From assembly GCA_016178135.1 (NCBI GenBank), contig JACOTW010000001.1, forward strand, positions 228 to 64,227: a stretch of DNA of 64,000 nt. The letters are read 5' to 3'. Every line of letters starts with the position of its first letter. The stretch's first letter is position 1. Positions 7,238 to 46,958 of the stretch are shown one piece after another. This stretch comes from Candidatus Saccharimonadota bacterium (lineage in GTDB: Bacteria > Patescibacteriota > Saccharimonadia > Saccharimonadales > JACOTW01). Made by a program: the position numbers and the translations under genes. The notes beneath the pieces are model-generated. The model was not told where the DNA came from and did not search any database. It saw only the letters and a program-made list of their open reading frames with translations.

Positions 7238-7246
7238 AATTACCCC

Positions 7247-14578: not shown

Positions 14579-14832
14579 CTAGACCAATCGCAAACTCTCT
14601 TTCGGACACGAGTTTCGCACTTTTCCATAGCCCCAGATGACACCTGACAAGCTACAGCCACTCACTCCTCACTCAACATAGGCTATAGCCCAAGCCTCCC
14701 TCGGATTGAACAACTGTAACCAGCCAGCTGCAACCTGGCATCAATGGCTAAGTGCGAAACTCGTGTCGGATAAAAACAGTTTTCGCTCGAACTGATTCGC
14801 CCTGGGAACGACGGATTTCGCGACAGGTCCAG
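14579..14832 (+). mobile_element. Internally deleted PE-A carrying a nested PE-B
   Basis: A degenerate left TIR CTAGACCAATCGCAAA joins directly to the right half ...CTGGGAACGACGGATTTCGCGACAGGTCCAG. It begins 4 nt after the stop of the Ddl-like gene. Confidence 0.75.
14606..14765 (+). mobile_element. PE-B element, full copy
   Basis: TIRs ACACGAGTTTCGCACTT/AAGTGCGAAACTCGTGT with a 3-bp TSD (CGG/CGG). Confidence 0.85.
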
Positions 14833-14876
14833 TATACCGTTACGACAGTTATGGCCATAGGGTGTATTATTAGTTT

Positions 14877-15521
14877 ATGCAAAAGGCGATGTTTGGGGCG
14901 GGGTGTTTTTGGGGAGTGCAGTATTATTTTGACCAAGTACCTGGGGTAAATAAAACTACCGTAGGCTATAGCGGCGGGCATACCAAAAATCCGTCTTATG
15001 AAGAAGTTTGTACGCATACTACTGGTCATGCGGAAGTGGTTGAAATTGAGTTTGACCCAAGTAAAGTCAGCTATGAAACACTTGTAAAACAATTTTTTCG
15101 GATGCACGACCCCACACAATTAAATAGGCAAGGTCCAGATGTAGGCGATAGCTATAGCCATCCCAAAACAAAATGACCATTTTTGTCTGCGCCTGATGAT
15201 CTAAAAACTACTTTTTTGTCTGCAGCATATCTACGGATATGCTTTAGCCAAAGAAAGCTAGTTTTTAGACTCATCATCCATCACTCAAAATTTGGTCATT
15301 TTGTTTTGGAATGGCTATATCGTTCGGCGATTTTTTATTTTGATGACGATCAAAAGCAAATTGCCGGAACAATTAAAGCGACCACGCAAAATAGTTCTGA
15401 AAAGCCCATCGTAACAGAAATAACTCAAGCTATGGAGTTTTACAAAGCTGAAGATTACCACCAAAAATACACCGAACGCACTGGTCGCGGCATGTGCCAC
15501 GTGCCATATAAAGAGGTATAG
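14877..15521 (+). pseudogene. msrA: Peptide methionine sulfoxide reductase MsrA interrupted by a PE-C insertion
   Basis: GCFWGV...[11 protein letters not shown] ends at 15155 and RSAIFYFDDDQKQ... resumes at 15321. The junction matches the conserved GxxYRSAIY. The 165-bp insert is in frame but contains a TGA at 15174-15176. Confidence 0.8.
15155..15317 (+). mobile_element. PE-C element, full copy, inside msrA
   Basis: TIRs TAGCCATCCCAAAACAAAATGACCA / TGGTCATTTTGTTTTGGAATGGCTA with a TA target-site duplication (15153-54 and 15318-19). Confidence 0.85.
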
Positions 15522-15537: not shown

Positions 15538-15559
15538 AAGTGCGAAACTCGTGTATACT
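15538..15559 (+). promoter_or_regulatory. Solo PE-B right end supplying a TATACT -10-like hexamer 7 nt upstream of an ATG
   Basis: The sequence reads AAGTGCGAAACTCGTGTATACT, then 7 nt, then the ATG at 15567. Confidence 0.5.
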
Positions 15560-15566
15560 TCTTTTT

Positions 15567-16454
15567 ATGGCGAAGAAAACTTCTAATAAGGCAAAGATAA
15601 AATCGAAGGTAACTAAGAAAACTAAGACCCGCAAATTAATTACTACTAGTCTGAAAATAACAAGAAAAACCAAACTTGGCTGGGTCAACACTATAGACCA
15701 CAAGCAACTTAGAATACTTCATATATTAAGTGGAGTGTTATTTGTGGTACTTGCCATAGCTGCCGGTACGATTATGAAAACCACTAACTACCAACTGTAT
15801 ACAAGCTACGTTACAAGAGATGAGCTTGCAAGTCGGACAACTACCGTACTAGTGCCAGCGGCGCATAATTTTTATGAACTTGATGTTAGATGGGCCGTGG
15901 TTGTTTTGATGGCTTCAGCTGCTATTATTCCGCTCCTGATGGTTACTAAATTAAAAGATCGTTATCATTCCTGGATAAAGGAAGGTGTTCACCCTTGGCG
16001 CTGGATTGATGTTGCCGTAACTATGGCGTTAACCGTGGGTCTGACAGCACTTGTAAGTGGCGTACAGGATATACTAACGCTGAAATTAGTGGTTGGGCTT
16101 ATTGTTTTGGTGGCTGTACTTGCCTGGCTTTCCGAACGGCAAAATAAAGGGTTAAATAAACCGGTATGGTCGCTGTTTGTAATAAGTTTTATCACTGGTC
16201 TGTTTGTTTGGGCGGTTATTGCGAGTTCGTTTATTAGTACCTATATATGGGGTATGGTGCGTTTTCCGTGGTTCGTGTACGCGGTGGTGACCATGACATT
16301 TATAGGTTTTGGCTTAGCGGCCATCAATCACTACAATTACCTTAGACGTTATGGTAATTGGAAAAATTATATGTTCGTTGAACGTAATTACCTAATCATT
16401 AATCTTGTATCCAAATTTGCTTTTGTCGCCATATTTATTATGGGCTTAAAGTAA
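15567..16454 (+). CDS. Polytopic membrane protein with a Lys-rich N-terminus, unknown function
   Basis: About 295 aa with multiple hydrophobic helices. No recognisable family. Confidence 0.5.
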   Translation: MAKKTSNKAKIKSKVTKKTKTRKLITTSLKITRKTKLGWVNTIDHKQLRILHILSGVLFVVLAIAAGTIMKTTNYQLYTSYVTRDELASRTTTVLVPAAHNFYELDVRWAVVVLMASAAIIPLLMVTKLKDRYHSWIKEGVHPWRWIDVAVTMALTVGLTALVSGVQDILTLKLVVGLIVLVAVLAWLSERQNKGLNKPVWSLFVISFITGLFVWAVIASSFISTYIWGMVRFPWFVYAVVTMTFIGFGLAAINHYNYLRRYGNWKNYMFVERNYLIINLVSKFAFVAIFIMGLK

Positions 16455-17269: not shown

Positions 17270-18121
17270 ATGAAAAAATACTATATAGGTGTTACGATTC
17301 TTATAGCAATAACCCTAGGGCTAACTGGCTACATCTTTGTGGGGGCTACTGCGGAAAAGCAAGATCGACAAACAGAGAAAAAAGCTCAAGAAATCGTTAC
17401 AAAATTAAATAGCCATATTAGAACTTCTCAAAAAATTCCGGAAAACCTTACGGAAGCGGGTATTAAAGACGTGCCATCAACCATTAGCTACTCTAAACAA
17501 TCATCAAGTGAATATGAGTTTTGCACGACCTATAAGTCGTCTAAAGGCTATGGATATAGTGATCCTAGCTCAATTCTAAGTGGCATGGCAACACGACAAT
17601 TGGGTGGTTATGATACAGAATCTTCGAATAGCGTCTATAAGTCCAGTGGTCTAAGTAGTCTATATGTAAACTACACTCATAAAAAAGGTAAAAATTGCCA
17701 AACGGTCAAGCCGTATCTATATAACTATGATTCAACGGATAATTTGTATTATAATAAGCCCAACAATTCCAGTTCCTCGTCCCTGTCATCATCTAGTCAG
17801 GATGTTGAACGAAAGACTGACATAATGGCACTGCAATCACAACTGGAAGATTATTATAATCAGAACGGAGTTTATCCTACGGTTAATGACATTAATAGTG
17901 CATCATGGCGTAGCATTAATATGAAAAACCTAAATAAAGAATATTTACGCGATCCGTTAAGTGGAAGTTATGCACTTACAAGTATTCCAATGAAAAATTA
18001 CTATTCCTATGAGGTATTGGGATCGAATGGAAAGGCTTGTATGTCTACAGACTGCGCATCCTACACTTTAAGTGCCAAATTAAGCGACGGCACTTCGTAT
18101 GTCAAGCAAAGCCTGATATGA
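17270..18121 (+). CDS. Membrane-anchored secreted protein with a pilin/PulG-like C-terminal fold
   Basis: An N-terminal TM anchor and a C-terminal DVERKTDIMALQSQLEDYYNQNGVYP pattern typical of type IV pilin-like domains. It lacks a canonical prepilin G/FTLxE site. Confidence 0.4.
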   Translation: MKKYYIGVTILIAITLGLTGYIFVGATAEKQDRQTEKKAQEIVTKLNSHIRTSQKIPENLTEAGIKDVPSTISYSKQSSSEYEFCTTYKSSKGYGYSDPSSILSGMATRQLGGYDTESSNSVYKSSGLSSLYVNYTHKKGKNCQTVKPYLYNYDSTDNLYYNKPNNSSSSSLSSSSQDVERKTDIMALQSQLEDYYNQNGVYPTVNDINSASWRSINMKNLNKEYLRDPLSGSYALTSIPMKNYYSYEVLGSNGKACMSTDCASYTLSAKLSDGTSYVKQSLI

Positions 18122-18921
18122 ACTATAGGGTGGAGCGTAGCCAACCCTATAAACCTGGGCAAAAAACGTCATTTAAAGTGAGCCGATCAAAAATTGAGCT
18201 ATTCACGCAGTGTCAGCGTTGTTTCTGGTTAGATGCTCGGCTTAAGATTAAGCGTCCCAACGGACCGCCATTTCAAATCAATAAAGCCGTTGATGAATTG
18301 TTGAAAAAAGAATTTGACGGTTATCGTTTGAAAGGCAAGGCTCACCCTGTAATGATCGAATTTGGGGTTGCCGCTATTCCATTCGCTCATGCCAGTCTGG
18401 ATGTTTGGCGAACCAATTTTACGGGAGTGGCTACCCTGTATGAACCTGCGAATTTGCAGGTTTTTGGTGCTGTTGATGATATTTGGGTAAATAGCAACGA
18501 CGAACTCATAGTAGTAGACTACAAAGCCACTGCCAAACAAAGCGATGTTACTCTAGATGCCGATTGGCAGATGAGCTATAAGCGGCAGATGGAAGTTTAC
18601 CAGTGGCTATTACGTCAAAATGGCTTTAAGGTGAGCGATACTGGCTACTTTGTTTACGCTAATGGTCGGCTGGATGTTGATGGGTTTTATAACAAAATAG
18701 AGTTTAGAACAAAAATCATTCCATACACCGGAAATGATGCCTGGATAGAGCCAACCCTGGGGAATATGAAAGATTGTCTAGAGGCTGATATGCCACAAGT
18801 CGGTAAGGCTGCCATGGGTGGCGATTGCGATTTTTGTACCTACGCCAGAGCCCGCTCGGAGCTGACAATAGCGGCACTTAACTGGACTTACGCAAAGCTC
18901 CCCCATCCCCAGACCGACTAA
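18118..18921 (+). CDS. PD-(D/E)XK nuclease, Cas4/RecB-like with a 4-Cys cluster; C-terminus and stop derived from PE-A
   Basis: CQRCFW near the N-terminus, DYKATAKQ core, EVYQW, and C-terminal CDFCTY. The last 13 codons (NWTYAKLPHPQTD*) lie inside the PE-A copy starting at 18882. Confidence 0.65.
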   Translation: MNYRVERSQPYKPGQKTSFKVSRSKIELFTQCQRCFWLDARLKIKRPNGPPFQINKAVDELLKKEFDGYRLKGKAHPVMIEFGVAAIPFAHASLDVWRTNFTGVATLYEPANLQVFGAVDDIWVNSNDELIVVDYKATAKQSDVTLDADWQMSYKRQMEVYQWLLRQNGFKVSDTGYFVYANGRLDVDGFYNKIEFRTKIIPYTGNDAWIEPTLGNMKDCLEADMPQVGKAAMGGDCDFCTYARARSELTIAALNWTYAKLPHPQTD

Positions 18922-19040
18922 TCTCGGCTGCAAACAGTTTTTTCTCTCTCGATGTACCTCCCTGGTACCTCTCCTTCAGACAAAACTGTTTTCGCTCGAG
19001 CTGATTCGTCCTGGGAACGAGGGATTTTGCGTAAGTCCAG
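18882..19040 (+). mobile_element. PE-A element (alpha subtype), full copy
   Basis: TIRs CTGGACTTACGCAAA/TTTGCGTAAGTCCAG with flanks TTAA/TTTT. Confidence 0.85.
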
Positions 19041-19067
19041 TTTTAAGCAAGCCAAAAAGCCATCTTG

Positions 19068-19146: not shown

Positions 19147-19192
19147 TATCCGTTGTCTACGAAAAAGTTCGAAATTCCTATATACTGTTCTT

Positions 19193-20491
19193 ATGCTAGA
19201 TATTCAGTTTATCCGTGAAAATAGAGAAATTGTTAGAGTAAAGGCAAAACAAAAAGGTTATGATATAGATATCGATCAGCTTTTGGGGTTTGATAGTAAG
19301 CGCCGTGAACTACTCACTGCGGCTGAAGAATTACGCAGAAAACGCAACGAGATTAACGAATCCACAAAAGGTCAGCGACCAAATGACGAACAAATATCCA
19401 AAGGTCGCGAATTAAAAGAGCAATTGGCTAATCTTGAGCACCAACTTAGTTCGGTAGATCAAGAATTCCAAATTCTGTTAAAACAAGTTCCTAATATGCC
19501 CGCAGAAGATGTGCCAATAGGGGATAGCGAAGAACAAAATGTTATAGCCAAAACAGTTGGCGAAGCACATAAATATGACTATGAAGTTAAGCCGCACTGG
19601 GAAATATTAAAAAATCTGGACATGATGGACAAAGAGCGCGCTGCCAAAATATCTGGTAGCCGCTTTGTTTATTTAAAAGGAGATATTGTACGTTTACAGT
19701 TTGCACTCATTCAATATGTTATGGATAAGCTCGGAGATCAAAAAGTTATACAAAAATTAATCGATGATAACGGTCTCAAAATAAGTTCTAAACCATTTTC
19801 GCCAGTAATACCACCAGCAATGTTACGTACTGAACCTTACGTAGCATCCGCCCGCTTAGATGCTGAAGCAGTAACATACAAATTAGAAAATGATGATTTA
19901 TGGCTTAATGCCAGTGCTGAACACACTTTATGTACCATGTATTGGAATGAAACTTTACAAGAAGATCAGTTACCAATCCGTTATCTTGGGTATAGTCCAA
20001 GTTTTAGACGTGAAGCCGGTACATACGGTAAAGACACAGAAGGTATCATCCGCTTACATCAGTTTGATAAACTTGAGATGGAAGTGTTTAGTACGACCGA
20101 AACAGGGTTGGACGAACACAAACTTCTTATTGCCATTCAAGAATATCTAGTTCAACAATTGAAGATTCAATATCAGTATATACAAAAATGTACTTTTGAT
20201 ATTGGTAAGCCGAATGCTCGTGGCGTGGATATAAACTGTTGGTTTCCAGGTCAAAAACGTTATATTGAAACACACACCGCCGATTATATGACTGATTATC
20301 AGGCTCGCGACCTTAATACTAGAGTTAAGAAAAAGGACGGTAGTATAGAATTTGTCCACACCAATGATGCCACGGCGTTTGCTTTGGGTAGAATCCTAGC
20401 TACGATTGTTGAAAATTATCAGGACAAAGATGGTTCTATCTGGATTCCGGAGATTTTAAAAAGCTACATGGGAGGAAAAGAAAAGTTATGA
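19193..20491 (+). CDS. serS: Seryl-tRNA synthetase
   Basis: N-terminal coiled coil MLDIQFIRENRE and class II core. CCTATATACT lies 6 nt upstream of the ATG at 19193; the upstream ORF extension is likely spurious. Confidence 0.93.
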   Translation: MLDIQFIRENREIVRVKAKQKGYDIDIDQLLGFDSKRRELLTAAEELRRKRNEINESTKGQRPNDEQISKGRELKEQLANLEHQLSSVDQEFQILLKQVPNMPAEDVPIGDSEEQNVIAKTVGEAHKYDYEVKPHWEILKNLDMMDKERAAKISGSRFVYLKGDIVRLQFALIQYVMDKLGDQKVIQKLIDDNGLKISSKPFSPVIPPAMLRTEPYVASARLDAEAVTYKLENDDLWLNASAEHTLCTMYWNETLQEDQLPIRYLGYSPSFRREAGTYGKDTEGIIRLHQFDKLEMEVFSTTETGLDEHKLLIAIQEYLVQQLKIQYQYIQKCTFDIGKPNARGVDINCWFPGQKRYIETHTADYMTDYQARDLNTRVKKKDGSIEFVHTNDATAFALGRILATIVENYQDKDGSIWIPEILKSYMGGKEKL

Positions 20492-20859: not shown

Positions 20860-20878
20860 ACCACCTTTCTTTTATTAA

Positions 20879-21038
20879 CTGGACCTGTCGCAAAGCTCCC
20901 TCATCCCCAGACCGACTAACCTCGGTTACAAACAGTTTTTCCTCTCTCGATGTACCTCCTGGGTACCCCTCCTTCAGACAAAACTGTTTTCGTTCGAGCT
21001 GATTCGCCCTGGGAACGAAGGATTTTGCGTAAGTCCAG
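20879..21038 (+). mobile_element. PE-A element (alpha subtype), full copy
   Basis: TIRs CTGGACCTGTCGCAAA/TTTGCGTAAGTCCAG with a perfect 4-bp TSD (TTAA/TTAA). Confidence 0.9.
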
Positions 21039-21100
21039 TTAAAGCATATCCGTAGATATACTGCAGACAAAAATGGTCATTTTGTTTTGGGATGACCATA
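21039..21100 (-). repeat. PE-C left half, reverse orientation, abutting PE-A
   Basis: AAAGCATATCCGTAGATATACTGCAGACAAAAATGGTCATTTTGTTTTGGGATGACCA. The break is at the GCTTTA site, which also hosts PE-D at 37591. Confidence 0.7.
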
Positions 21101-23775: not shown

Positions 23776-25062
23776 ATGAAACATAAGGTTAACGAAATAT
23801 CACTGGCAAATGGTGCTCGGGGACTTTTGATTGACGTGCCAGACGCTACTGTTATGACTTTTGAGCTGAATTTTAGGGCGGGTGAATACTTGGTAGAGCG
23901 GGAAAAATGGGAGACACCTCATCTCATGGAACATGTATTATTGGGTGCCAACGAGCTCATACCAAAAGCTAGTGCTTTCTACGCTGAATTTGAAAAAAAC
24001 GGTGCTTATAGCAATGCCAGCACGGGAACTTACGATATCAACTACGAGTCAGAATGTGCTGATTTTGAGTGGGATCGTATATTAAGCCTATTATTGGTAG
24101 CTATAGCCAAGCCAAAATTTCTCAAAGAAGAATTTACTGCTGAATTTAGTAATGTTCGAGAAGAGTTAACAGCACGTTCTAATAATCACTTCAGACATTT
24201 AAGTTTAAGCCTACGCGAGGCCTATGGATTCAAGGTCATGACCGATCAAGAACGCATAAAACTCATGACTAACGTCTATTTAGAAGATATTCGTACTCAC
24301 TATAAAAATACTCATACTACTAGCAACTTGCGTTTTGTCATTGCCGGAAAGTTGCCACTACAGCGTCGCAAACACATTGCGCAGGCTTTATCGGCAATGG
24401 AACTACCGAAAGGCGACGGCCGCTTGGAGTTGCCCGAAGAAACACCCAGCAAAATTACGCACCCGCTATATATTCATAATGCAACAGTTGATAATCTATA
24501 TTTTTACATAGATACATTCATGAATCGTCGAATGCGCGATCCGGAAATTGATGCCTTGGGACTCATCAACAGCATGTTAACCGAAACTTTATATTCAAGA
24601 ATTCTTGGTACAGCCCGTGAGCGTGGCCTAGTATATAGTATGAATTCTGGACTTGGACAAACCAAAAACGTTAGCAATTGGTGGTTTGGTACGCAAGTTT
24701 TGCCGGCTAATGCACCGGCTCTTTTTGATATTATCAACAAAGAACTTAAGTCAGTATTTGCTGGTAAGCTCAATGAGGAAGATATTACGGCCGCCAAACA
24801 ATACGCACTAGGACGCTATCAGCGTAGCGGTCAGACCGTGGGCGGCATGGCCTCGGGTTACACTTATCGTTATTTTTTTGACGAACACATTGATGATTAC
24901 TACAAGGTACCAGAACGCATTCGGGCTATTTCTCGTAACCGTATCATTGAAATTAGTAAAGAGTTATTTAGTGAAAATATATGGGGTTTGGGCTGTTTGG
25001 GCAATGCTGGCGAGGATGTAGTAAACCAGCTATATGACCGCATTAAACCTCTCTGGAAATGA
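23776..25062 (+). CDS. M16 (pitrilysin/insulinase) family zinc peptidase
   Basis: Inverted zinc motif HLMEH within WETPHLMEHVLLG. Start taken at MKHKVNEISL. Confidence 0.8.
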   Translation: MKHKVNEISLANGARGLLIDVPDATVMTFELNFRAGEYLVEREKWETPHLMEHVLLGANELIPKASAFYAEFEKNGAYSNASTGTYDINYESECADFEWDRILSLLLVAIAKPKFLKEEFTAEFSNVREELTARSNNHFRHLSLSLREAYGFKVMTDQERIKLMTNVYLEDIRTHYKNTHTTSNLRFVIAGKLPLQRRKHIAQALSAMELPKGDGRLELPEETPSKITHPLYIHNATVDNLYFYIDTFMNRRMRDPEIDALGLINSMLTETLYSRILGTARERGLVYSMNSGLGQTKNVSNWWFGTQVLPANAPALFDIINKELKSVFAGKLNEEDITAAKQYALGRYQRSGQTVGGMASGYTYRYFFDEHIDDYYKVPERIRAISRNRIIEISKELFSENIWGLGCLGNAGEDVVNQLYDRIKPLWK

Positions 25063-25072
25063 GCTATTGTCA

Positions 25073-25087
25073 AAAGTCCTATATAAT
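25073..25087 (+). promoter_or_regulatory. AAAGTCCTATATAAT promoter-like motif 8 nt upstream of the prfB ATG
   Basis: The same motif recurs at 2263-2283, 4574-4588, 26183-26196 and 36414-36436, and forms the PE-D right terminus at 37733-37750. Confidence 0.55.
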
Positions 25088-25095
25088 AAGTTTGT

Positions 25096-26184
25096 ATGCA
25101 GGAATTACTAAAAAAAGTAAGTGCTATTAGTGCCGATGTAGCAGACGCTTTTGAGAAATTAGCAATAAATTCGCTCAAAGATGAGCTCTTACATCTAAAG
25201 ACAGCCTCCCAGGAGGCTAATTTTTGGTCAGATAATATGCGTGCCCAGCAGACCATGAAACGTATTGCTGATTTAGGGGCTAGAGTGGATCCATGGATCA
25301 ATCTTGAAAAAAGTTTGCATGATATAAAGGAACTACTGGATACAGAAGATAGCAGCCTGTCTAGTGAGCTAACTGCGCAATTAAATTACTCGGAAAAAAC
25401 TTTTAATGAATTAAAAGCACAACTCAAATTTACCGGTAGGTATGATGATTTCGATGCCATTATGAGTATACATGCTGGTGCTGGTGGTACTGATGCCCAA
25501 GATTGGGCGCAAATGTTGATGCGTATGTACATCCGTTGGGCCGAGCGTTGCCATATGAGCGTAACGGTCATTGAGGAATCTGCAGGAGAGGAAGCGGGTA
25601 TAAAAAGCGTTACTCTGGAAGTTGACGGTAATTTTGCCTACGGCAAGCTCAAAGGCGAACACGGTGTACATCGTTTAGTACGGCTAAGTCCGTTCAATTC
25701 CGACAATCTAAGGCAGACTAGCTTTGCCAAGGTAGAAGTCTCGCCCAAGATAGATAAGCCAGATTTAATAGCTATTGATGATAAAGATCTTAAGATTGAT
25801 GTTTATCGCAGTGGCGGTCATGGTGGTCAATCAGTTAATACTACGGACTCCGCAGTTCGAATCACTCACTTGCCAACGGGGATAGTCGTAGCTATCCAAA
25901 ATGAACGTAGTCAATTGCAAAACAAAGAAACAGCTATGACAATTTTGCGTTCTCGTCTAGCTCAAATGCGGCAAGAACAGCACCTGGAAAATATTGCCGA
26001 ACTGAAGGGGCCAAATGAGCAAGCTGCTTGGGGAAATCAGATCCGTAGCTACGTCCTACACCCCTACAAACAGGTCAAAGATATTCGTACTCGCCATGAA
26101 ACAAGTGATGCGGACGGAGTTCTGGACGGCAATTTAGACCCTTTTATCGACGCTTATATCAAATACAGTTTTGGTCAGGAATAA
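25096..26184 (+). CDS. prfB: Peptide chain release factor 2, uninterrupted frame
   Basis: SPF tripeptide (LSPFNS) and GGQ (SGGHGGQSVN). A single 362-aa ORF with no +1 frameshift site. Confidence 0.95.
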   Translation: MQELLKKVSAISADVADAFEKLAINSLKDELLHLKTASQEANFWSDNMRAQQTMKRIADLGARVDPWINLEKSLHDIKELLDTEDSSLSSELTAQLNYSEKTFNELKAQLKFTGRYDDFDAIMSIHAGAGGTDAQDWAQMLMRMYIRWAERCHMSVTVIEESAGEEAGIKSVTLEVDGNFAYGKLKGEHGVHRLVRLSPFNSDNLRQTSFAKVEVSPKIDKPDLIAIDDKDLKIDVYRSGGHGGQSVNTTDSAVRITHLPTGIVVAIQNERSQLQNKETAMTILRSRLAQMRQEQHLENIAELKGPNEQAAWGNQIRSYVLHPYKQVKDIRTRHETSDADGVLDGNLDPFIDAYIKYSFGQE

Positions 26185-26195: not shown

Positions 26196-26345
26196 ACACA
26201 AATTTCGCACTTTTCCATCGCCCCAGATGACACCTGACAGGCTACAGCGGCTCACTCCTCACTTAATGGCCCAAGACTCCCTCGGATTGAACAACTGTAA
26301 TCAGCCAGCTGCCACCTGGCATCCGGCTAAGTGCGAAACTCGTGT
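26196..26345 (+). mobile_element. PE-B element, full copy, with its right tip forming the ftsE -10 box
   Basis: TIRs ACACAAATTTCGCACTT/AAGTGCGAAACTCGTGT with a 3-bp TSD (ATA/ATA). The junction creates CGTGTATAAT 8 nt upstream of the ftsE ATG. Confidence 0.85.
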
Positions 26346-26358
26346 ATAATAGGAACGA

Positions 26359-27042
26359 ATGATTTTGCTAGACAGGGTAACCAAAGTTTATAATCGTACC
26401 AATACAGCATTGGACCGCGTGTCTATACATGTAGAAGCAAAAGAGTTTGTGATTATTATTGGTACATCCGGAGCCGGAAAATCTACTCTACTAAAGCTTT
26501 TAACCAAAGAAGAACGCCCAACCGGTGGCAAAATCGTGGTCGGCGGTCTTGACTATGACAAATTACAAGACAAAGATATCCCTTTAGTGCGCCGCAAAAT
26601 CGGCGTGGTTTTTCAGGACTTCAAGCTCCTACCCAATAGAAATGTCTTTGAAAACGTTGCTTTTGCTCTTGAGATTGTTGGTTATGGCAATGGCGAGATC
26701 AAGCATACCGTGCCGCGCGTTTTAGATATAGTAGGATTGAAGGGTAAAGAAAAAAGTATGCCACTTGAATTGTCTGGCGGTGAACGCCAACGAGTAGCTA
26801 TTGCTCGCGCCATTGTTCGTCAGCCAAAAATTCTGATTGCCGATGAGCCGACCGGCAATCTTGACCCTAAACATGCGTGGGATGTTATCAAGGTTCTGGA
26901 GAAAGTTAATCGCTACGGTACTACGGTATTATTAACCACGCACAACAAAGACATTGTTAATAAATTAAAACGTCGAGTAATAACCCTTAAAGATGGTAGG
27001 GTAGTTAGTGATCGTGCTAACGCGGAGTATAAACAGGTCTAG
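26359..27042 (+). CDS. ftsE: Cell division ATP-binding protein FtsE
   Basis: Walker A GTSGAGKST, ABC signature LSGGERQR and Walker B ILIADEP. Confidence 0.95.
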   Translation: MILLDRVTKVYNRTNTALDRVSIHVEAKEFVIIIGTSGAGKSTLLKLLTKEERPTGGKIVVGGLDYDKLQDKDIPLVRRKIGVVFQDFKLLPNRNVFENVAFALEIVGYGNGEIKHTVPRVLDIVGLKGKEKSMPLELSGGERQRVAIARAIVRQPKILIADEPTGNLDPKHAWDVIKVLEKVNRYGTTVLLTTHNKDIVNKLKRRVITLKDGRVVSDRANAEYKQV

Positions 27043-30559: not shown

Positions 30560-31741
30560 GTGCGACACTTTCTGCAAAGTGAGGCGTGGCAGCGATTTCA
30601 GCAAGCGCTTGGCAAAGAAGTAATTAGCCAGCGCGGACATGGCTGGTCGTTTATGGGTGTTATTGAGCAGCCTCGGAAACGTGGTGGTCGCTTGAATCGG
30701 CGGCTGTATTTGCCTTATGGGCCAACTTGTCAAGATGAAATTGCTCTTGGGGAGGCTCTCCAGGCAATCAGAAAAATAGCAAACCAAAAAAAAGTAGTAT
30801 ATGTTCGCCTGGAGCCTATTATTCTTTCCGGTCAAACAATTGATCTGAAAAAGTACGGCTGTCAACCAAATAAGCACCCCACGCAACCAGATAGAACTTG
30901 GGTACTGAATCTTGCAAAGGACGAGGAAAATCTGTTGGCAAATATGAGTGGGACCAACCGGAACCTTTGGAATACTCATAAAAATAAAGGACTGTCATTC
31001 CAGATTGATTACGATAAAACGGACTTAAAAGACTTTTTAGCGATGCTACACGCGATGGCTGGGCGTAAAGGTCTAAAAACACACGACGACAGTTATTTTA
31101 AGACGATGGCCAGAAGTTTATTTCCCGAAAAAGATGCCGGATTAGCTATTGCTTTGTTGCATGACAAACCAATTGTGGCGGCAATTTTCTTTGATGATCC
31201 AGTGGCTGGGATTAGATATTATGCCCATGCTGGGTCATTTGAAGAGGCTCGGAAAATCCAGGCCAACTCTCCACTTTTGACTTTTTTGATACTAGACGCC
31301 AAAAAACGCGGCTTCAAGGAGTTTGACTTCTATGGCGTCTCTCCGCCTGGTGACGAGTTACACCGCTGGGCTGGACATAGCAAGTTTAAACGCTCATTTG
31401 GTGGTGTAGACAAAGAATACCTAGGAACCTGGGAGTTACCGGTGAGACGCGATTTATTTATCTTGGCCCAAGTTGCTCGCAAATTCAGTAAACTGGACTT
31501 ACGCAAAGCTCCCTCATCCCCAGACCGACTAACCTCGGCTGCAAACAGCTTTTCCTCTCTCGATGTACCTCCTGGTACCTCTCCTTCAGACAAAACTGTT
31601 TTCGCTCGAGCTGATTCGTCCTGGGAACGAGGGATTTTGCGTAAGTCCAGTAAACCTCTTGCCAAAGCTTCAGGGAGTAAGGTAGTATTTAAAGGAATAA
31701 TAAAAAGAGGTGATACAAGAGGTGGCAAAGCAACCGACTAA
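30560..31741 (+). CDS. FemAB-family peptidoglycan bridge aminoacyltransferase with a C-terminus read through a complete PE-A copy
   Basis: N-terminus MRHFLQSEAWQRFQQALG and the FemAB pattern. From about codon 312 the ORF reads through all 158 bp of PE-A (LDLRKAPSSPDRL...ILRKSS) and on to 31741, overlapping pyrG. Confidence 0.7.
   Translation: MRHFLQSEAWQRFQQALGKEVISQRGHGWSFMGVIEQPRKRGGRLNRRLYLPYGPTCQDEIALGEALQAIRKIANQKKVVYVRLEPIILSGQTIDLKKYGCQPNKHPTQPDRTWVLNLAKDEENLLANMSGTNRNLWNTHKNKGLSFQIDYDKTDLKDFLAMLHAMAGRKGLKTHDDSYFKTMARSLFPEKDAGLAIALLHDKPIVAAIFFDDPVAGIRYYAHAGSFEEARKIQANSPLLTFLILDAKKRGFKEFDFYGVSPPGDELHRWAGHSKFKRSFGGVDKEYLGTWELPVRRDLFILAQVARKFSKLDLRKAPSSPDRLTSAANSFSSLDVPPGTSPSDKTVFARADSSWERGILRKSSKPLAKASGSKVVFKGIIKRGDTRGGKATD
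31493..31650 (+). mobile_element. PE-A element (alpha subtype), full copy, inside the femAB-like ORF
   Basis: Perfect TIRs CTGGACTTACGCAAA/TTTGCGTAAGTCCAG with a perfect 4-bp TSD (TAAA/TAAA). Confidence 0.9.
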
Positions 31742-33340: not shown

Positions 33341-33811
33341 ATGAGCGATATAAGGAATAATTTTATGGACAACACTCAACAACCCCAACAGCCTGAACCA
33401 CCAACAGAAAAAATTCTTACTCCAGCGCCCGTAACAGACCCTAAACACCCCAAGAAAATTTTATTGGTTGAAGACGATGATGCGCTGGCCAGTGTTTATG
33501 AAACTCGTTTAACTTCCGAAGGTTTTGCTACGCGTCGTGTTCCAAACGGCGAAGACGCGTTAGCTATAGCATTAGAATACAAACCAGATCTGATTTTGCT
33601 TGACGTTATGATGCCAAAGGTGAGTGGTTTTGACGTTCTGGACATTTTGCGCAACACGCCCGAAACAATGAACATAAAAGTTATTATGTTGACGGCCCTA
33701 AGTCAAGATAGTGATAAACAACGGGCGGAAACACTGGGCGTTGATGAATATTTAGTAAAGTCGCAAGTAGTAATTGCCGACGTAATAGAACACATCAAAA
33801 AACATCTGTAA
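33341..33811 (+). CDS. Single-domain response regulator (canonical receiver)
   Basis: LLVEDDD, the phospho-acceptor context DLILLDVMMP, plus LTA and K (YLVKS). Confidence 0.85.
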   Translation: MSDIRNNFMDNTQQPQQPEPPTEKILTPAPVTDPKHPKKILLVEDDDALASVYETRLTSEGFATRRVPNGEDALAIALEYKPDLILLDVMMPKVSGFDVLDILRNTPETMNIKVIMLTALSQDSDKQRAETLGVDEYLVKSQVVIADVIEHIKKHL

Positions 33812-33819
33812 CAATTATA

Positions 33820-34182
33820 CTGGACATGTCGCAAAAGCCCCCATCTCCAGACCGACTAACCTTGGTTACAAACGGCTTTTCTTCTCTCGATGTATTCTTT
33901 AAGCTCTCCTTCGGATAAACTGGACCTGTCGCAAAACTCCTCCATCCCCAGATCGAATTCTATCGGCTACTCTTCGAGTCTGAGCCTGAGGGCTCACCTC
34001 AGAGTCGAAGACAAACGGTTTTTCTTCTCTCAATGTAGCCAAGAACTAATTAACATCTATCTGTCGGCTAAAATCTTTAGGTCTGTCACTTTTATTCTGT
34101 TTTTTGTTTTCGGTTCGTACCGATAGGTACGACCAAAAGCCAAGAAAACAGAATAAAAATCATGACAGCTGCTAAAGATTCG
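33820..34182 (+). mobile_element. Stack of truncated elements: PE-A left part, a second PE-A left part with PE-S, and a truncated PE-E
   Basis: PE-A #1 (33820-33919) is cut by PE-A #2 (from 33920). PE-A #2 contains PE-S (33971-34012) and then PE-E (34046-34182), which ends abruptly. No right halves are present. Confidence 0.75.
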
Positions 34183-34586: not shown

Positions 34587-34859
34587 TTATTCGACTGTAA
34601 CTTCGCTGCGTTTTACGGATTTACCACTGAAGAGTCGGACTTTTCGGGTGCTGAAGTTAACTATGCCATCTTTGGCAGCGTGAATGGTGAAATTGCGACT
34701 CAAAGTTGTACCAGCTCCGGCGCGCTTAGTCATACCAACCTGCCGAACGATAACCTGACCGGTTTTAACTTTTTGGCCACCATATAGCTTTACCCCGAGC
34801 CTTTGCCCGGGTGAATCATGAATATTTTTGGATGTACCACCAGCTTTAACGTGTGACAT
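34587..34859 (-). CDS. rpmA: 50S ribosomal protein L27
   Basis: MSHVKAGGTSKN...GQRLGVK...G.IIVRQ pattern. Shine-Dalgarno AGAGG upstream. Confidence 0.95.
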   Translation of the reverse strand: MSHVKAGGTSKNIHDSPGQRLGVKLYGGQKVKTGQVIVRQVGMTKRAGAGTTLSRNFTIHAAKDGIVNFSTRKVRLFSGKSVKRSEVTVE

Positions 34860-34875: not shown

Positions 34876-36087
34876 TTATTTTCTTATTAATACTATTAGT
34901 TCACGGGCTACAACTTGATCCGGTCTATGATAAACAAGATCTGCATTACTCACATGAACAAAACTTGTCCGAGTATACCCCAATTCCTCAATAAGTTCAA
35001 GTACGGGGAGGTGCTTGAAGTTTTTTTCTGTGTTCCAGGCTGGCACCGCGATGCATAAACGGGTTCCAGGGCTAAGTTGCCGGGCTAGATTTTTGAGGAA
35101 TTTTTTGATTATGGTGTTCACATCGTGTATGACTCCGCTAAGCACATCAGCGGTTGGTTGGGCAGAGAAGGGGCGGCCAAGATATGTTTCGCAAGCTACA
35201 GTGTCGATTGGTTTAACCCATTCGTTTTGTGTCGCGTCGCCTATAGAAACACGAAATTCTTTCTGGGTAGGCTGAAGCTTATCCATAAGCCACTCCAGAT
35301 TGGTTTGAGAATATTCAAACATACGCCTGTCAATATCCGTGCCGTAGGCTCGGTAGCCCATTATAAGAGCCTCCTGTAAGATCACGCCTGTTCCACAAAA
35401 AGGATCCAGTATAGTGGAATCGTGGGTGGTTTTTGGGCTACAAGCAGGATCGACGGGCTCGATTAGGCCAACAGCTAGGTTGATGATAATTTGGGCTAGT
35501 TTGGGCGGTAACATGCCGACTTTGGCGTCACGTTTTGGTCGGCCACGGTCGCGCAGAGTGTATGATTCAATATCCTGAACAGCTATGCTTTGGGCGATCA
35601 AGGTTTTGGAACCATGTTTGACGAATATTAGCTCCCAGCCCAGCGGACCAGTGAGTTGATTATGCAGGACCTGGGCGCTACTAAGGGCCGTTTCAACGTT
35701 TGGTATAACTCGAACCGAACGACCACTGGCTCTGATTACTTTTTTGAGAGTCAGACCAGTTGCGGCAATCTGCTGCGGTCTCATTGAAAATCCATAGACA
35801 CTTAATCCAAGCCGCATTTTGCCTTCAGGCATATAGTCCAGATGTTGAGGCGTGGTTTCTGCTAGAAATTTTTCAACATGGCGCCAGTTAACGGTGTCTA
35901 AAATGGTTAGTAGTTTGCAAAACTTTACTGTACCGCCTAGGCGAGTGAAATCAATTTGCGCCGGCTCAATATTAAGTAACGCGCCATGTTCGCCAATAGG
36001 TTGAATATTATCACCACCAAAAAGGCTTTCAAGCTCGGCTATTCCAAGTGCTGGCTGCCTTCCCAAAATACAAAATGCCTGATTCAT
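34876..36087 (-). CDS. THUMP-like/class I SAM-dependent RNA (guanine-N2-type) methyltransferase
   Basis: DPFCGTGVILQEA motif and the UPF0020-type layout. The true start is MNQAFCILG at 36087; the 70-aa upstream extension in the ORF track is a PE-A translation. Confidence 0.7.
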   Translation of the reverse strand: MNQAFCILGRQPALGIAELESLFGGDNIQPIGEHGALLNIEPAQIDFTRLGGTVKFCKLLTILDTVNWRHVEKFLAETTPQHLDYMPEGKMRLGLSVYGFSMRPQQIAATGLTLKKVIRASGRSVRVIPNVETALSSAQVLHNQLTGPLGWELIFVKHGSKTLIAQSIAVQDIESYTLRDRGRPKRDAKVGMLPPKLAQIIINLAVGLIEPVDPACSPKTTHDSTILDPFCGTGVILQEALIMGYRAYGTDIDRRMFEYSQTNLEWLMDKLQPTQKEFRVSIGDATQNEWVKPIDTVACETYLGRPFSAQPTADVLSGVIHDVNTIIKKFLKNLARQLSPGTRLCIAVPAWNTEKNFKHLPVLELIEELGYTRTSFVHVSNADLVYHRPDQVVARELIVLIRK

Positions 36088-36100
36088 ACTATCTAGTATA

Positions 36101-36260
36101 CTGGACTTACGCAAAGCTCCCTCATCCCCAGACCGACTAACCTCGGCTACAAACAGTTTTTCCTCTCTCGATGTACCTCCTGGGTACTTCTCCTTCAGAC
36201 AAAACTGTTTTCGCTCGAGCTGATTCGCCCTGGGAACGAGGGATTTTGCGACAGGTCCAG
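36101..36260 (+). mobile_element. PE-A element (alpha subtype), full copy
   Basis: Perfect 4-bp TSD (TATA/TATA). On the minus strand its tip reads GTCCAGTATACT, then 7 nt, then the methyltransferase ATG. Confidence 0.9.
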
Positions 36261-36268
36261 TATAGCTA

Positions 36269-36312: not shown

Positions 36313-36445
36313 TAGCCAGAGTTTTCTCATCCACTCATCCCGCGCCACTCTTACATAATTTTTCACCACCCCAGACCAATCCTGTAAAGCAGGATTACTC
36401 TGGAATTGGTGAAAAAGTACGAAAGTCCTATATAATAAATGTTTA

Positions 36446-37504
36446 ATGGTAGACAAAATCAAGCAAGGTCGCTGGAAACTAGCTCTCAATCTTTTTACTA
36501 TTGGGGCGCTTGTGATTCTTGCCTATGCGCTTAGGCATCAGATATCTGAAACAATTCAAAAACTTGGCGAGGTTAACACCTACGCTCTATTGCTAATGAT
36601 ACCCCTGGAGATTTTTAACTATCATTCACAAGCTAAGCTATACCAGAGTATGTTTAGAATTTTAGGCGACAGGATACGCTATCGTTCACTGTATCGTCTT
36701 TCTTTGGAACTAAACTTTGTTAATAATATCTTTCCGAGTGGTGGAGTTTCCGGATTTTCTTATTTTGGCGTTCGTATGAAAAACGGGGCCAACATAGCCC
36801 CAACCAAGGCAACGCTAGTTCAACTCATGAAATTTATTATGATGTTTGTTTCTTTTCAGGTTATGCTTGCCATTGGACTGCTTATGTTGGCGATTGGTGG
36901 CAACGTCAACAACCTAGTCATTTTAGTTGCCGGATCAATTACTACCTTGTTATTCGTAAGTACTTTTGGACTGGCTTATATTATTGGTAGCAAGCAAAGG
37001 ATTAGGAGTTTTTTTACAATCCTAACACGTGTTGCTAACAGAATAATTCATGTGTTTCGCCGCAGGCATCCTGAAACCATTAATATTGATAAGGCTCAAG
37101 AAAAATTTACCGAGATACATGAAAACTACATGTTGCTCAAACAAGACCTTAACGCACTCAAACAGCCACTGCTTTATTCGCTGATGGCAAACGTGTCAGA
37201 GATACTTACTATCTATATGGTTTATGTTGCTTTTGGTCACTGGGTTAACCCTGGCGCTGTTATTTTGGGTTACGCAATCGCTAATTTTGCTGGTTTCTTT
37301 TCGGTTTTGCCTGGCGGGATTGGGCTTTATGAAGCATTGATGACTGCAACGTTGGCCACTGCCGGTGTGTCAGCCGGACTAAGCCTGCCTGTAACTATTA
37401 TGTATCGAGTACTCAATATGTTAATCCAGCTACCGCCAGGTTACTTTTTTTATTATCGAACAATCCACAAGGGGTCAAATAATCAGTCACGGGCTGTCAG
37501 CTGA
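36446..37504 (+). CDS. Flippase-like / lysylphosphatidylglycerol-synthase TM-region family membrane protein
   Basis: 352 aa, about 8 TM helices, with the typical N-terminal pattern KxxLxLxxxxxLxxLAYxLR and FPSGGVSGF. Confidence 0.65.
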   Translation: MVDKIKQGRWKLALNLFTIGALVILAYALRHQISETIQKLGEVNTYALLLMIPLEIFNYHSQAKLYQSMFRILGDRIRYRSLYRLSLELNFVNNIFPSGGVSGFSYFGVRMKNGANIAPTKATLVQLMKFIMMFVSFQVMLAIGLLMLAIGGNVNNLVILVAGSITTLLFVSTFGLAYIIGSKQRIRSFFTILTRVANRIIHVFRRRHPETINIDKAQEKFTEIHENYMLLKQDLNALKQPLLYSLMANVSEILTIYMVYVAFGHWVNPGAVILGYAIANFAGFFSVLPGGIGLYEALMTATLATAGVSAGLSLPVTIMYRVLNMLIQLPPGYFFYYRTIHKGSNNQSRAVS

Positions 37505-37851: not shown

Positions 37852-37872
37852 GGTAATGTTACAGTTATTCTT

Positions 37873-38976
37873 ATGCAGGAGTTAGTTTTTTCGCCGAGTG
37901 ATTTTGTTGCTGTTTTGAATCAGACGCTGGAATCTGCCTATCCCGGCGTTATGATTCAGGGGGAGTTGGCTAATTTTCGTGTGAGTAAAAATAAATGGGT
38001 GTATTTTGATCTCAAGGACGAATATTCTTCAGTTAAATTCTTTGGAACGATCTATCAATTAACGGGGCCACTGGAAGATGGACTTATGCTACAAGTCAGG
38101 GGAATACCACGGCTACATCAAGCCTATGGTTTTAGTATTAATGTGCAATCTATACGACCAGTAGGTGAGGGATCGTTACGCAAGGCTGCGGCGTTGCTGG
38201 AGGCTAAACTGACTGCGGAGGGCTTGTTTGAGTCTTATCGTAAGCGAGCGCTACCATATCCGCCGGAGTGCATCGGGCTTATTGCGTCCAGTGAGTCTGC
38301 TGCTTATCATGATTTTATCAAGATTTTAAATAGTCGGTGGGGTGGGGTGATGATAGAGCTTGCCGACGTACAGGTTCAAGGTGATGCTGCTATTGGGCAA
38401 ATTGTTCGGGCTATAGATTACTTTAATCAACATGCCAAAATGCCCGAAATTTTAGTAATAACCAGAGGTGGTGGCAGTACTGAAGATCTGGCAGTTTTTA
38501 GTACCGAACAAGTTACGCGAGCTATAGCCGGCAGTCGTGTTCCGACCATGGTTGCCATCGGCCATGAAGTAGATTTGAGTCTGGCTGAACTAGTGGCTGA
38601 TCGGCGCGCCAGTACACCCAGCAACGCTGCCGAACTACTTGTACCAGATAAAAAACATGAACGCCAGAGGGTTATTACGCAACAAAGAAGTCTAGATGAT
38701 TATCTATCCTACCTTATGAAAAATGCTCGCGAAGCCGTGAAAAATTATCAAAAAGAACTACAAGTTGGCTGGAAAGAATATATTACTAATGCAAAACGTA
38801 CACTTAGCTTGCATCGTCAGGTACTTGCGGTTTTAGACCCTGACACCGTGCTCAAGCGCGGTTATGCGATTGTTCGTAGTAGTAATGGTGTCGTACTACG
38901 CTCAATTAAGCAAGTAGAAGCCGGTGATACACTTAATGTAGTGATTAGCGATGGTAGTTTTGAAGCTAGAGTATGA
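37873..38976 (+). CDS. xseA: Exodeoxyribonuclease VII large subunit
   Basis: An OB-fold N-terminus (GELANFRVSKNKWVYFDLKD) and a catalytic core (ITRGGGSTEDL, IGHEVD). Confidence 0.9.
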   Translation: MQELVFSPSDFVAVLNQTLESAYPGVMIQGELANFRVSKNKWVYFDLKDEYSSVKFFGTIYQLTGPLEDGLMLQVRGIPRLHQAYGFSINVQSIRPVGEGSLRKAAALLEAKLTAEGLFESYRKRALPYPPECIGLIASSESAAYHDFIKILNSRWGGVMIELADVQVQGDAAIGQIVRAIDYFNQHAKMPEILVITRGGGSTEDLAVFSTEQVTRAIAGSRVPTMVAIGHEVDLSLAELVADRRASTPSNAAELLVPDKKHERQRVITQQRSLDDYLSYLMKNAREAVKNYQKELQVGWKEYITNAKRTLSLHRQVLAVLDPDTVLKRGYAIVRSSNGVVLRSIKQVEAGDTLNVVISDGSFEARV

Positions 38977-41871: not shown

Positions 41872-42563
41872 AGTCTCAAATTATTACTACGGGTATAATG
41901 TTGGCTAGAACTGATTTTCAGGAGGCTGATCGGATTATTACGGTACTTACGTCAGATCATGGAAAAATCAGGGCTATCGCCAAAGGTGTTCGCCGCCCAA
42001 AATCTAGGTTGGCTGGTGGCATTGAGCTTTTTAGTGTTAGTAATCTGACCTTTTTGCCTGGTCGCGGTGAAATGCAGACTTTGATTTCCAGTCGGCTAGG
42101 CATCCATTACGGCAACATAGTTAATGATATCAATAAAACCATGTTGGGGTACGAACTACTGAAGATCATGAATCGGCTTACTGAAGATGCAGCCGGTGGG
42201 GAATACTTTTACCTGTTGCAAACCGCTTTAGATGGGTTGAACAACCAAGAACTTTTGGCGGGCACGCTAGAGCTTTGGTTTGATATGCATTTATTGAAGA
42301 TTACTGGCCACGCTCCAAATTTACAGACAGACAAAGAGGGAAATAAACTCAAAGATAATCAACGATACGTCTTTAGTTTTGACGATATGCTATTTGTACC
42401 GATTCAAAATGGACTCCATGACACCAGCGTAATTAAGTTGTTACGGTTAGCTTATGCCGCCAAAGAGCCCAGTTTGCTTGCCAGGGTTAACGGAGTAGAG
42501 GCATTACTGCCAAAATGCCAACAGCTTACAAAGACTATGCTGAACCGCTTTGTTCGGATATAA
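41868..42563 (+). CDS. recO: DNA repair protein RecO
   Basis: An OB-fold N-terminus GIMLARTDFQEADRIITVLTSDHGKIRAIAKGVRRPKSR. Confidence 0.85.
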   Translation: MKSQIITTGIMLARTDFQEADRIITVLTSDHGKIRAIAKGVRRPKSRLAGGIELFSVSNLTFLPGRGEMQTLISSRLGIHYGNIVNDINKTMLGYELLKIMNRLTEDAAGGEYFYLLQTALDGLNNQELLAGTLELWFDMHLLKITGHAPNLQTDKEGNKLKDNQRYVFSFDDMLFVPIQNGLHDTSVIKLLRLAYAAKEPSLLARVNGVEALLPKCQQLTKTMLNRFVRI

Positions 42564-42574
42564 TCACATCCAAT

Positions 42575-44598: not shown

Positions 44599-44635
44599 AC
44601 ACAACAATCATAGCATTATTTCTTTGTGGAATAGA

Positions 44636-44794
44636 CTCGACCTACCCAAAACTCCTCCATCCCCAGATCGAATTCTATCGGCTACAAACAGTTTTTCTTC
44701 TCTCGATGTAGCTAAGGCTACCTCTCCTTCAGACAAAACAGTTTTCGCTCGAGATAATTCACTCTGGGAACGGACGATTTTGCGACAGGTCCAG
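44636..44794 (+). mobile_element. PE-A element (beta subtype) with a degenerate left TIR, abutting the typA stop codon
   Basis: CTCGACCTACCCAAAA...TTTTGCGACAGGTCCAG. The right flank TTTA contains the complement of the typA TAA stop. Confidence 0.8.
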
Positions 44795-44795
44795 T

Positions 44796-46622: not shown

Positions 46623-46630
46623 AAAAATTC

Positions 46631-46678: not shown

Positions 46679-46685
46679 CATAAGC

Positions 46686-46903: not shown

Positions 46904-46958
46904 AAGATTTTTAGGGTGAAGGGTGTATTATAAAACGGTTATGAGCTTTTTCATTTTA

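Follow-up and report, generated by a model that had tools for sequence, protein, structure and literature searches.

What does it mean when a promoter-like hexamer lies a few nucleotides before a start codon and leaves no space for a Shine-Dalgarno (SD) sequence? The question is raised by prfB in a 64,000-nt stretch of contig JACOTW010000001.1 (assembly GCA_016178135.1), hereafter the window, which comes from a metagenome-assembled genome (MAG) of Candidatus Saccharibacteria, a lineage of Patescibacteria or candidate phyla radiation (CPR). The promoter and start of prfB span 25082-25098 of the plus strand: a -10 hexamer TATAAT (25082-25087) is separated from ATG 25096 by the 8-nt spacer AAGTTTGT (25088-25095). 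Upstream of it are the TGA stop of an M16 peptidase gene (25060-25062) and AAAGTCC (25073-25079). No purine-rich SD sequence fits between TATAAT and ATG, as had been proposed, and no TTGACA-like hexamer is found 16-18 nt upstream of the -10 box, TTGTCA (25067-25072) being only 9 nt from it. The transcription start site (TSS) is predicted at G25094, the seventh nucleotide past the hexamer, which would give a 2-nt leader, or at A25096. The original prediction listed 17 such hexamer and spacing pairs in this DNA and took them as a sign of widespread leaderless mRNAs. All 17 pairs were found in the sequence, and the analyses described below suggest that leaderless or nearly leaderless transcription (0-3 nt of leader) from -10 boxes 6-10 nt before ATG is the best explanation, with a probability of about 0.8.

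A check of the proposed kind, here a comparison of hexamer spacing with control positions, confirmed the observation. Open reading frames (ORFs) were called mechanically, with the first ATG of the longest ORF as the start. TANNNT ended 6-9 nt before ATG in 15 of 61 window ORFs, compared to a mean of 5.0 when these upstream sequences were read at five control offsets (p=9e-5), and the stricter pattern TA[TCA][AG][AC]T did so in 10 of 61 versus 1.0 at control offsets (p=6e-8). Counting from the motif instead, we found 34 sites in the window with a strict -10 hexamer, 6-9 nt and ATG; 18 of these opened an ORF of at least 50 codons (23.5% of all ATGs do so), and most of the 18 were gene N-termini. 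The hexamer peaked 6-8 nt before ATG, the commonest spacing being 8 nt. A conventional two-hexamer sigma-70 scan of the window (29 matches versus 20.9±4.1 in shuffled sequences) missed the serS, prfB and ftsE sites because no -35 element is present there, and is therefore uninformative for this promoter type.

In a census of approximately 59 curated window genes, about 20 were of the leaderless type, including several that had not been listed before (gene 816 on the minus strand, ddl 13531, the CHAP gene 28169 and xseA 37873). Some 18 genes had SD sites, among them hpf, secA, pyrG, murD, murG and others as well as the RRM gene, rpmA, ftsI and mraZ, for which AGGAG-type sites had been proposed. 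Thus, the leaderless type was fairly called widespread, but SD genes, described as a minority, are about as numerous. Another 18 or so had neither signal, and many of these overlap or abut an upstream stop codon. Three genes with neither a -10 nor an SD, 49939, 50999 and 56641 (all plus strand, in the division and cell-wall cluster), are preceded by A-rich runs, e.g., aaaaaaaaacaaaaattgcATG, which may represent a third route of translation start.

The same signal was seen in other members of the lineage. We used the loci surrounding the 53 best genomic relatives of prfB (50-69% identity), all of which were from Candidatus Saccharibacteria, Saccharimonadales or Patescibacteria MAGs. Among approximately 960 ORFs of these loci, the hexamer showed a sharp peak at 6-7 nt: TANNNT was present in 269 of 959 ORFs versus 91.8 at control offsets (p=3e-59), a net excess of about 18% of ORFs, and the strict pattern in 175 versus 26.8 (p=8e-86). 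The excess persisted in 343 ORFs that had no homology to the 31 window genes tested (94 versus 41, p=7e-15), and was absent from 25 outgroup loci outside CPR, mostly Chloroflexi (19 of 408 versus 21.6). The window itself matched GCA_016196105.1 without a difference in the 5.1 kb that were compared, and was 99.4-99.96% identical to a 654-kb contig of GCA_040960765.1.

Conservation was also examined gene by gene, using protein alignments that started at residue 1 as an anchor and looking for TANNNT 5-10 nt before the orthologous start codon. The hexamer was found in 33 of 38 species for serS, 49 of 51 for ftsE, 33 of 53 for prfB (10 others had SD), 14 of 17 for the methyltransferase gene and 13 of 16 for the LPG-synthase-TM gene. 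Other families were conserved as SD-type: ftsX had the hexamer in 2 of 51 species (SD in 24), pyrG in 1 of 27 (SD in 23), hpf in 1 of 42 (SD in 33) and secA in 3 of 43 (SD in 26). The best-scoring hexamer was located at 6 nt in 19 of the 38 serS species and at 7 nt in another 11, at 7 nt in 28 of 51 for ftsE (-10 at 6-10 nt in 47 of 51) and at 7 nt in 16 of 53 for prfB (-10 at 6-9 nt in 25 of 53), and showed no spacing peak in the four SD-type families. Protein identity among these orthologues was only 36-66% and the upstream sequence flanking the hexamer was not conserved, so a hexamer that nevertheless keeps its position is strong evidence of function. On these alignments, the layout is conserved across Saccharibacteria gene by gene.

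The anatomy of these sites is that of a sigma-70 promoter. When 333 sites of other Saccharibacteria were aligned on the hexamer, in which T1, A2 and T6 were invariant, an extended -10 element was seen (G at -2 in 59% and T at -3 in 45%) together with a weak TTG at -23 to -21 (T 44%, G 35%), i.e., at a 17-nt spacer. These are promoter features and not features of a ribosome-binding site. Start codons were also unevenly served: the strict hexamer occurred at 6-8 nt before 12.5% of ATG and 2.9% of GTG candidates, and before TTG candidates at background frequency (0.4%). Such a preference is expected where the transcript starts on the codon's own first base, a purine. SD 4-mers at -4 to -17 were present in 21% of genes versus 4.5-6% at control positions, but in 5.2% of leaderless-type genes compared to 26.9% of the others, which makes the two classes mutually exclusive. 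In genes overlapping an upstream gene, SD reached 49% and the hexamer was at background (11%), and 54% of genes located 5-39 nt behind the stop codon of a same-strand neighbor had the hexamer.

Further details point to a TSS tied to the hexamer. At 6-nt spacing, a pyrimidine occupied position -1 in 50 of 55 cases versus 63% in other genes (p=7e-6), as expected if the A of ATG is +1. At 7- and 8-nt spacing, A was enriched at the seventh nucleotide past the hexamer (44% and 55%, respectively), and the two observations together indicate a preferred start at a set distance. The pyrimidine signal was seen only after splitting by spacing; pooled over 6-8 nt, it was not significant (67% versus 63%). 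Sites in the window behaved in the same way: nearly all 6- and 7-nt sites had a pyrimidine at -1, and the 8-nt sites (uppS, prfB, ftsE, topA and NYN) had a purine at the seventh position.

From the motif, its spacing, its specificity and its phylum-wide conservation, we infer two modes of translation start. About one third of genes, or roughly half of transcription units, would be transcribed from sigma-70-type promoters that end 6-10 nt before an ATG. These would be essentially bare -10 boxes (TAnnnT, often TATAAT, TATACT or TACAAT) with a slight or no -35 element and, in other Saccharibacteria, a frequent TGn extension. RNA polymerase would start about 7 nt past the hexamer, such that a 6-nt spacing, or a 7-nt spacing with a pyrimidine at -1, yields an mRNA that begins at AUG, and spacings of 8-10 nt, as in prfB, yield a leader of 1-3 nt. 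The prediction of a TSS at or next to the A of ATG is consistent with the sequence tests, but for the 8-10 nt spacings short leaders are more likely. With no room for an SD sequence, such mRNAs would have to use the leaderless route of translation, and initiation at a 5'-terminal AUG is suggested by this lack of room and by the preference for ATG and GTG over TTG. The remaining genes would rely on SD sites or on stop/start coupling.

All of these distances depend on correct start codons. Position 1 of the SerRS N-terminal profile (Pfam Seryl_tRNA_N) aligned with residue 1 of the 432-aa version of the protein; Toprim began at residue 5 of TopA, NYN at residue 8 of its protein and the OB-fold of XseA at residue 12. 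The N-terminus of the prfB product was conserved from residue 1 in approximately 45 species, and the methyltransferase start at 36087 was backed by the N-termini of orthologues. Public gene calls place the starts of prfB and ftsE at the ATGs used here, as one assembly also does for the CHAP gene. They take the longest ORF for serS (454 aa from GTG 19127) and for the methyltransferase (472 aa from ATG 36294), and these annotations are probably 22 and 69 codons too long, respectively.

A second feature of the window is that many of its -10 boxes are preceded by repeated sequence, GTGCGAAAGTCC, TGCGTAAGTCCAG or GTGCGAAACTCGTG; the pattern AAGTCCWNTA had 17 matches versus 1.06 expected. These sequences mark the outer termini of repeats that fall into four related families of miniature inverted-repeat transposable elements (hereafter MITEs). 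The family-1 consensus is about 170 bp long, has imperfect terminal inverted repeats (TIRs) of about 35 nt and folds into a hairpin (-73.5 kcal/mol, z = -9.4). The family was represented in the 64 kb by approximately 15 partial and 8 full copies, the latter at 3486-3657, 18875-19045 (given below as 18882-19042), 20872-21044, 31485-31656, 36094-36267, 44629-44800, 46952-47122 and 62096-62264. All eight full copies had the same orientation (172-194 bits on the plus strand versus 45-64 on the minus strand), even between two minus-strand genes. Because GC skew is positive over nearly the whole window, orientation may follow the replication strand and not transcription.

Three of the four families are mobile, families 1 and 4 as shown by empty sites and family 2 by target duplications that include a nested copy. 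A second MAG of the species (99.4-99.7% identical) lacked two of the elements. One is the 161-bp family-1 copy at 18882-19042 (plus strand), flanked by TTAA at 18878-18881 and 19043-19046, whose empty site is GGCACTTAAGCAAGCC in the corresponding sequence L099. The other is the 163-bp family-4 copy at 15155-15317 (plus strand; TA duplications at 15153-15154 and 15318-15319), which splits msrA between ...GDSY and RSAIFY.... The msrA gene (14877-15521) is intact in the second MAG (159 aa, L099 112-591), and the insertion looks like a recent gene-inactivating event that is polymorphic in the population. A 150-bp family-2 copy (26196-26345, plus strand) has inserted into the ftsE -10 box and duplicated 3 bp (ATA, with its copy at 26346-26348); its sister at 14606-14766 has the duplication CGG and is nested in a family-1 element. 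The full family-1 copy at 36094-36267 (plus strand), between the divergent methyltransferase gene and gene 36446, has TATA on both sides. Target duplications therefore include TWWA (TTAA at the copy confirmed by an empty site), TATA, 3 bp and TA. No autonomous element or transposase with the same TIRs was found in the window, and the TIR patterns and repeats were absent from all 80 related loci, which means that the phylum-wide hexamer signal cannot stem from them. When metagenome contigs were scanned with a TIR 20-mer, the 14 matches were about as many as chance would give, and none extended in similarity past the 20 nt.

About 10 of 20 leaderless-type sites in the window adjoin or resemble a TIR end (ydeI, uppS, 15567, serS, prfB, ftsE, 36087, 36446, xseA and ORF 61909), and at least 8 are free of any repeat (proS, msrA, glyQS, NYN, gene 48494, mraY, gene 816 and gene 28169). 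At prfB, AAAGTCCTA (25073-25081, plus strand) abuts and overlaps the -10 box and is the same as the outer end of the family-3 TIR (...GTGCGAAAGTCC followed by TATA). The 15-mer AAGTCCTATATAAT of this site recurs at uppS and gene 36446, and is regained at ftsE when the inserted MITE is deleted in silico; the deletion restores AAAGTCCTATATAAT-AGGAACGA-ATG, the promoter type of the other three genes. With the insertion, ftsE still has TATAAT at exactly 8 nt. At genes 36087, 15567, ftsE and 36446, the TIR end plus the target duplication spells TATACT or TATAAT 7-9 nt before ATG. In this species, then, many -10 boxes lie against, or share bases with, the ends of active MITEs, and the duplications (TWWA, TA or 3 bp) appear to rebuild the box after insertion. 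Tolerance of insertions just upstream of or inside the hexamer fits promoters that need only a -10 element. We also considered GTCC or AAGTCC as a lineage-specific promoter element and rejected it, as it is absent from the 333-site matrix and matches the TIR ends of species-restricted repeats.

Several other traces of these elements were observed. A family-1 insertion at 18882 has replaced the last seven or so codons of a PDDEXK nuclease gene (ORF 18118-18921), and a FemAB-like ORF (30560-31741) reads through the family-1 element at 31485-31656. A repeat cluster after the response regulator gene (33894-34170) is rearranged relative to L099 18798-19080, with unlike repeat fragments and non-aligning segments of 276 and 282 bp. 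On the minus strand, family-1 TIR ends at 33805-33836 and 46953-46989 are each followed by TATAAT or TAAAAT and face regions free of a close gene start; at 33805 only a 17-codon ORF is present, and from 46965 the typA ATG is about 330 nt distant. These hexamers could be antisense or long-leader promoters, or nothing.

How well do other explanations account for these observations? The hexamer might be a TA-rich, non-SD translation signal in longer leaders, an A/U-rich ribosome- or S1-binding element in the manner of GeneMarkS-2 group B (e.g., Bacteroidetes), in which an A/T-rich motif also lies a few nucleotides before the starts of genes without SD. CPR ribosomes are atypical and carry a short bS1 (PMC9297842), the window genes 49939, 50999 and 56641 have A-rich leaders and no SD, and the frequent position of the hexamer shortly behind a same-strand stop would allow co-transcription with the upstream gene. 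However, group B motifs are also operon-internal and not promoter-like (PMC6028130), whereas the Saccharibacterial hexamer has exact -10 anatomy with the TGn extension and the weak TTG, falls to background in overlapping genes, where SD takes over, and is absent before TTG candidates. The -1 pyrimidine at 6-nt spacing fits a rule of TSS choice and not ribosome binding. We therefore regard a translation signal as very unlikely. Mis-assigned start codons are more improbable still. True starts could lie downstream, or upstream in the longer public ORFs of serS and the methyltransferase, leaving the hexamers in leaders or coding sequence; in addition to these two calls, the public response regulator starts from ATG 33365, and several of the starts on the original list are internal to the longest ORF. 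Yet the SerRS profile begins at the first residue of the shorter protein, in almost every species the orthologue alignments open at the first residue of the short version, and public annotation shares the ATGs of prfB, ftsE and the CHAP gene. For the methyltransferase, the 5' extension consists of the MITE at 36094-36267, and since such sequence cannot have been coding ancestrally, the shorter start is the better one.

The repeats suggest another possibility, that the pattern in the window is mainly a by-product of MITE termini (...TGCGnAAGTCC(AG)) plus TA-rich duplications, and that the hexamers need not function. The excess of AAGTCCWNTA, the approximately 25 full or partial copies of a repeat of some 170 bp in 64 kb and the half of the sites associated with TIR ends (topA lies 7 nt beyond one) all speak for it, as does the mobility of the families, two copies being missing in the second MAG and a third nested in another repeat with its own duplication. 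But orthologues in the 80 repeat-free loci have the -10 box at equal distance, at least 8 window sites contain no repeat, and the majority of TIR ends do not lie at a leaderless distance from any gene. The ftsE insertion kept the spacing exactly, as would be expected of a box under selection. On balance, this origin of the pattern is very unlikely.

Some points do weigh against leaderless transcription as the explanation. The commonest spacing in the window is 8 nt and not 6-7 nt, and several genes including prfB would have leaders of 1-3 nt. ORF and start calls were crude, and about half of the window sites share MITE-derived sequence, so counts within the window overstate independence. All 53 loci surround prfB, which limits the number of distinct gene families sampled. 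Besides, the one TSS set found for a Saccharibacterium, 188 sites from RNA-seq of TM7x, is described as having a variable distance between -10 and TSS (PMC12641261). A wider proposal, which we offer only tentatively, is that Saccharibacteria and perhaps other CPR are a third major lineage with ancient, gene-specific leaderless initiation, and that the active MITEs of this species prefer the TA-rich -10 boxes of -35-independent promoters, where the duplication rebuilds the box and promoters can be occupied, and possibly spread, without cost. Landing of MITEs in -10 boxes would then explain the near-identical AAGTCC-TATAAT promoters before unrelated genes.

The individual sites illustrate the range of the layout. 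On the plus strand, the ydeI/OmdA gene (2280-2294, ATG 2292) can be read as TAAAGT with 6 nt or, alternatively, TATAAA with 8 nt, right after the family-3 TIR end GTGCGAAAGTCCTA. At uppS (4583-4599), AAAGTCC stands in front of TATAAT, 8 nt from ATG 4597. The proS site (7235-7249; TAGAAT, 6-nt spacer TACCCC, ATG 7247) has no full repeat end adjoining it, and its upstream sequence ATTTTGCGG is like a family-1 TIR. The site of msrA, a gene broken further downstream, is at 14865-14879 (TATTAT, 6 nt, ATG 14877). In serS (19181-19195; TATACT, spacer GTTCTT, ATG 19193), the A of ATG is the seventh nucleotide past the hexamer and T is at -1. At ftsE (26345-26361; TATAAT, 8 nt, ATG 26359), the family-2 MITE ends on the first T of the hexamer, and the same overlap is seen at 15554-15569 (TATACT, 7 nt, ATG 15567), where a family-2 TIR end (AAGTGCGAAACTCGTGT) supplies the hexamer's first base from its own last one. 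The gene behind this TIR-end/TATACT site (15567-16454), earlier called a membrane gene, encodes a heliorhodopsin (Pfam PF18761, 6e-33).

Farther along the plus strand are the LPG-synthase-TM gene (36431-36448; TATAAT, 9 nt, ATG 36446), so identified by Pfam and preceded by a complete family-3 TIR, xseA (37860-37875; TACAGT, 7 nt, ATG 37873) behind a family-1 TIR fragment, and glyQS (42559-42577; TATAAT, 10 nt, ATG 42575), whose leader is likely to be about 3 nt; a look-up of the glyQS protein returned no record. The list continues with a 155-aa gene (48482-48496; TATAAT, 6 nt, ATG 48494) and mraY (53206-53221; TATAAT, 7 nt, ATG 53219). Minus-strand sites include the methyltransferase gene (36085-36100; TATACT, 7 nt, ATG 36087), where the family-1 MITE's left-hand target-site copy provides the TATA of the hexamer, the NYN-domain gene (44596-44612; TATGAT, 8 nt, ATG 44598) and topA (61668-61684; TATACT, 8 nt, ATG 61670), located 7 nt past a family-1 TIR end (TGCGTAAGTCCAG followed by TAGAGTG).

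Most of the gene names given originally were backed by Pfam (OmdA/YdeI, uppS, proS, serS, prfB, ftsE, response regulator, methyltransferase, glyQS, NYN, mraY and topA), except for the LysM label of gene 48494, which had no Pfam match. Two of the examples were weakened. The response regulator at 33341 (plus strand) does have TATATA with 7 nt, but the hexamer lacks the final conserved T and the public start, ATG 33365, lies behind AAGGA. The 56-codon ORF at 61739-61909 (minus strand) has TATACT at 7 nt, but its status as a gene found no support in Pfam; it may not be a gene, since a partial TIR ends in this hexamer (ATAGGTCCAG followed by TATACT) and repeat fragments lie alongside. The window also contains typical leadered genes. 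For example, TATAAT lies about 50 nt ahead of typA, whose leader contains the GC-rich inverted repeat gagggcgctcgcatatagagcgctt (46622-46680, minus strand), and GAGG lies upstream of rpmA (34587-34859, minus strand, placed from public gene calls). Scans for Rfam families and tRNAs gave no matches in the window. As for prfB (25096-26184), it is one unbroken 362-codon ORF, as it is in Saccharibacterial orthologues aligning from residue 1, and because of this single uninterrupted frame the programmed +1 frameshift of many bacterial prfB genes seems to be absent.

These observations have practical and evolutionary consequences. Gene callers that assume SD or the longest ORF misplace starts in such genomes, as with serS and the methyltransferase here, the extra codons of the latter crossing a mobile repeat. 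Saccharibacteria are only now becoming genetically tractable, and a bare -10 box 6-7 nt from the ATG of many housekeeping genes bears on the design of expression cassettes. A CPR lineage with reduced ribosomes among leaderless-rich bacteria would also inform the debate on ancestral leaderless initiation. The interplay of MITEs and -10 boxes, a concrete and testable case in which mobile DNA and minimal promoters coexist or the former provides the latter, is the most interesting remaining lead.

With regard to known systems, the repeats resemble the Correia elements of Neisseria, as well as MITEAba12 and QMITE1, in being non-coding, 150-170 bp long and flanked by TIRs, with many copies before genes, outward sigma-70-like -10 ends and cases of gene disruption (PMC10969869). 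Like other MITEs, they are short and multi-copy and show target duplication and presence/absence polymorphism. They differ in comprising four related families with different target duplications (TWWA, 3 bp, TATA and TA) and in that the -10 box is partly made by the duplication and placed at leaderless distance from ATG. The searches turned up no parent transposase, this species is the only one in which the elements were seen, and their promoter role is putative.

The promoter layout itself has a close counterpart in GeneMarkS-2 group C, in which a Pribnow box lies 6-8 nt from the starts of operon-first genes, SD is used elsewhere and 25-50% of operons are leaderless; this group was reported mainly from Actinobacteria and Deinococcus-Thermus (PMC6028130). 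A literature search, confined to the searchable library, for a leaderless pattern in Saccharibacteria, TM7, Patescibacteria or CPR yielded no report, only mentions in reference lists. As in Mycobacterium tuberculosis, M. smegmatis, Corynebacterium, Streptomyces and Deinococcus deserti, we found TANNNT near the start, a weak or absent -35, SD only at other genes, and both ATG and GTG as the putative 5'-terminal codon; the Pribnow-type motif is localized and the two gene classes are distinct. The differences are that this lineage is Saccharibacteria/CPR, whose genome is small with about 43% G+C and whose ribosome is reduced, and that the commonest spacing in the window is 8 nt, so that some mRNAs would carry 1-3 nt leaders. 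The pattern is thus the known group C layout in a new lineage and not a new mechanism.

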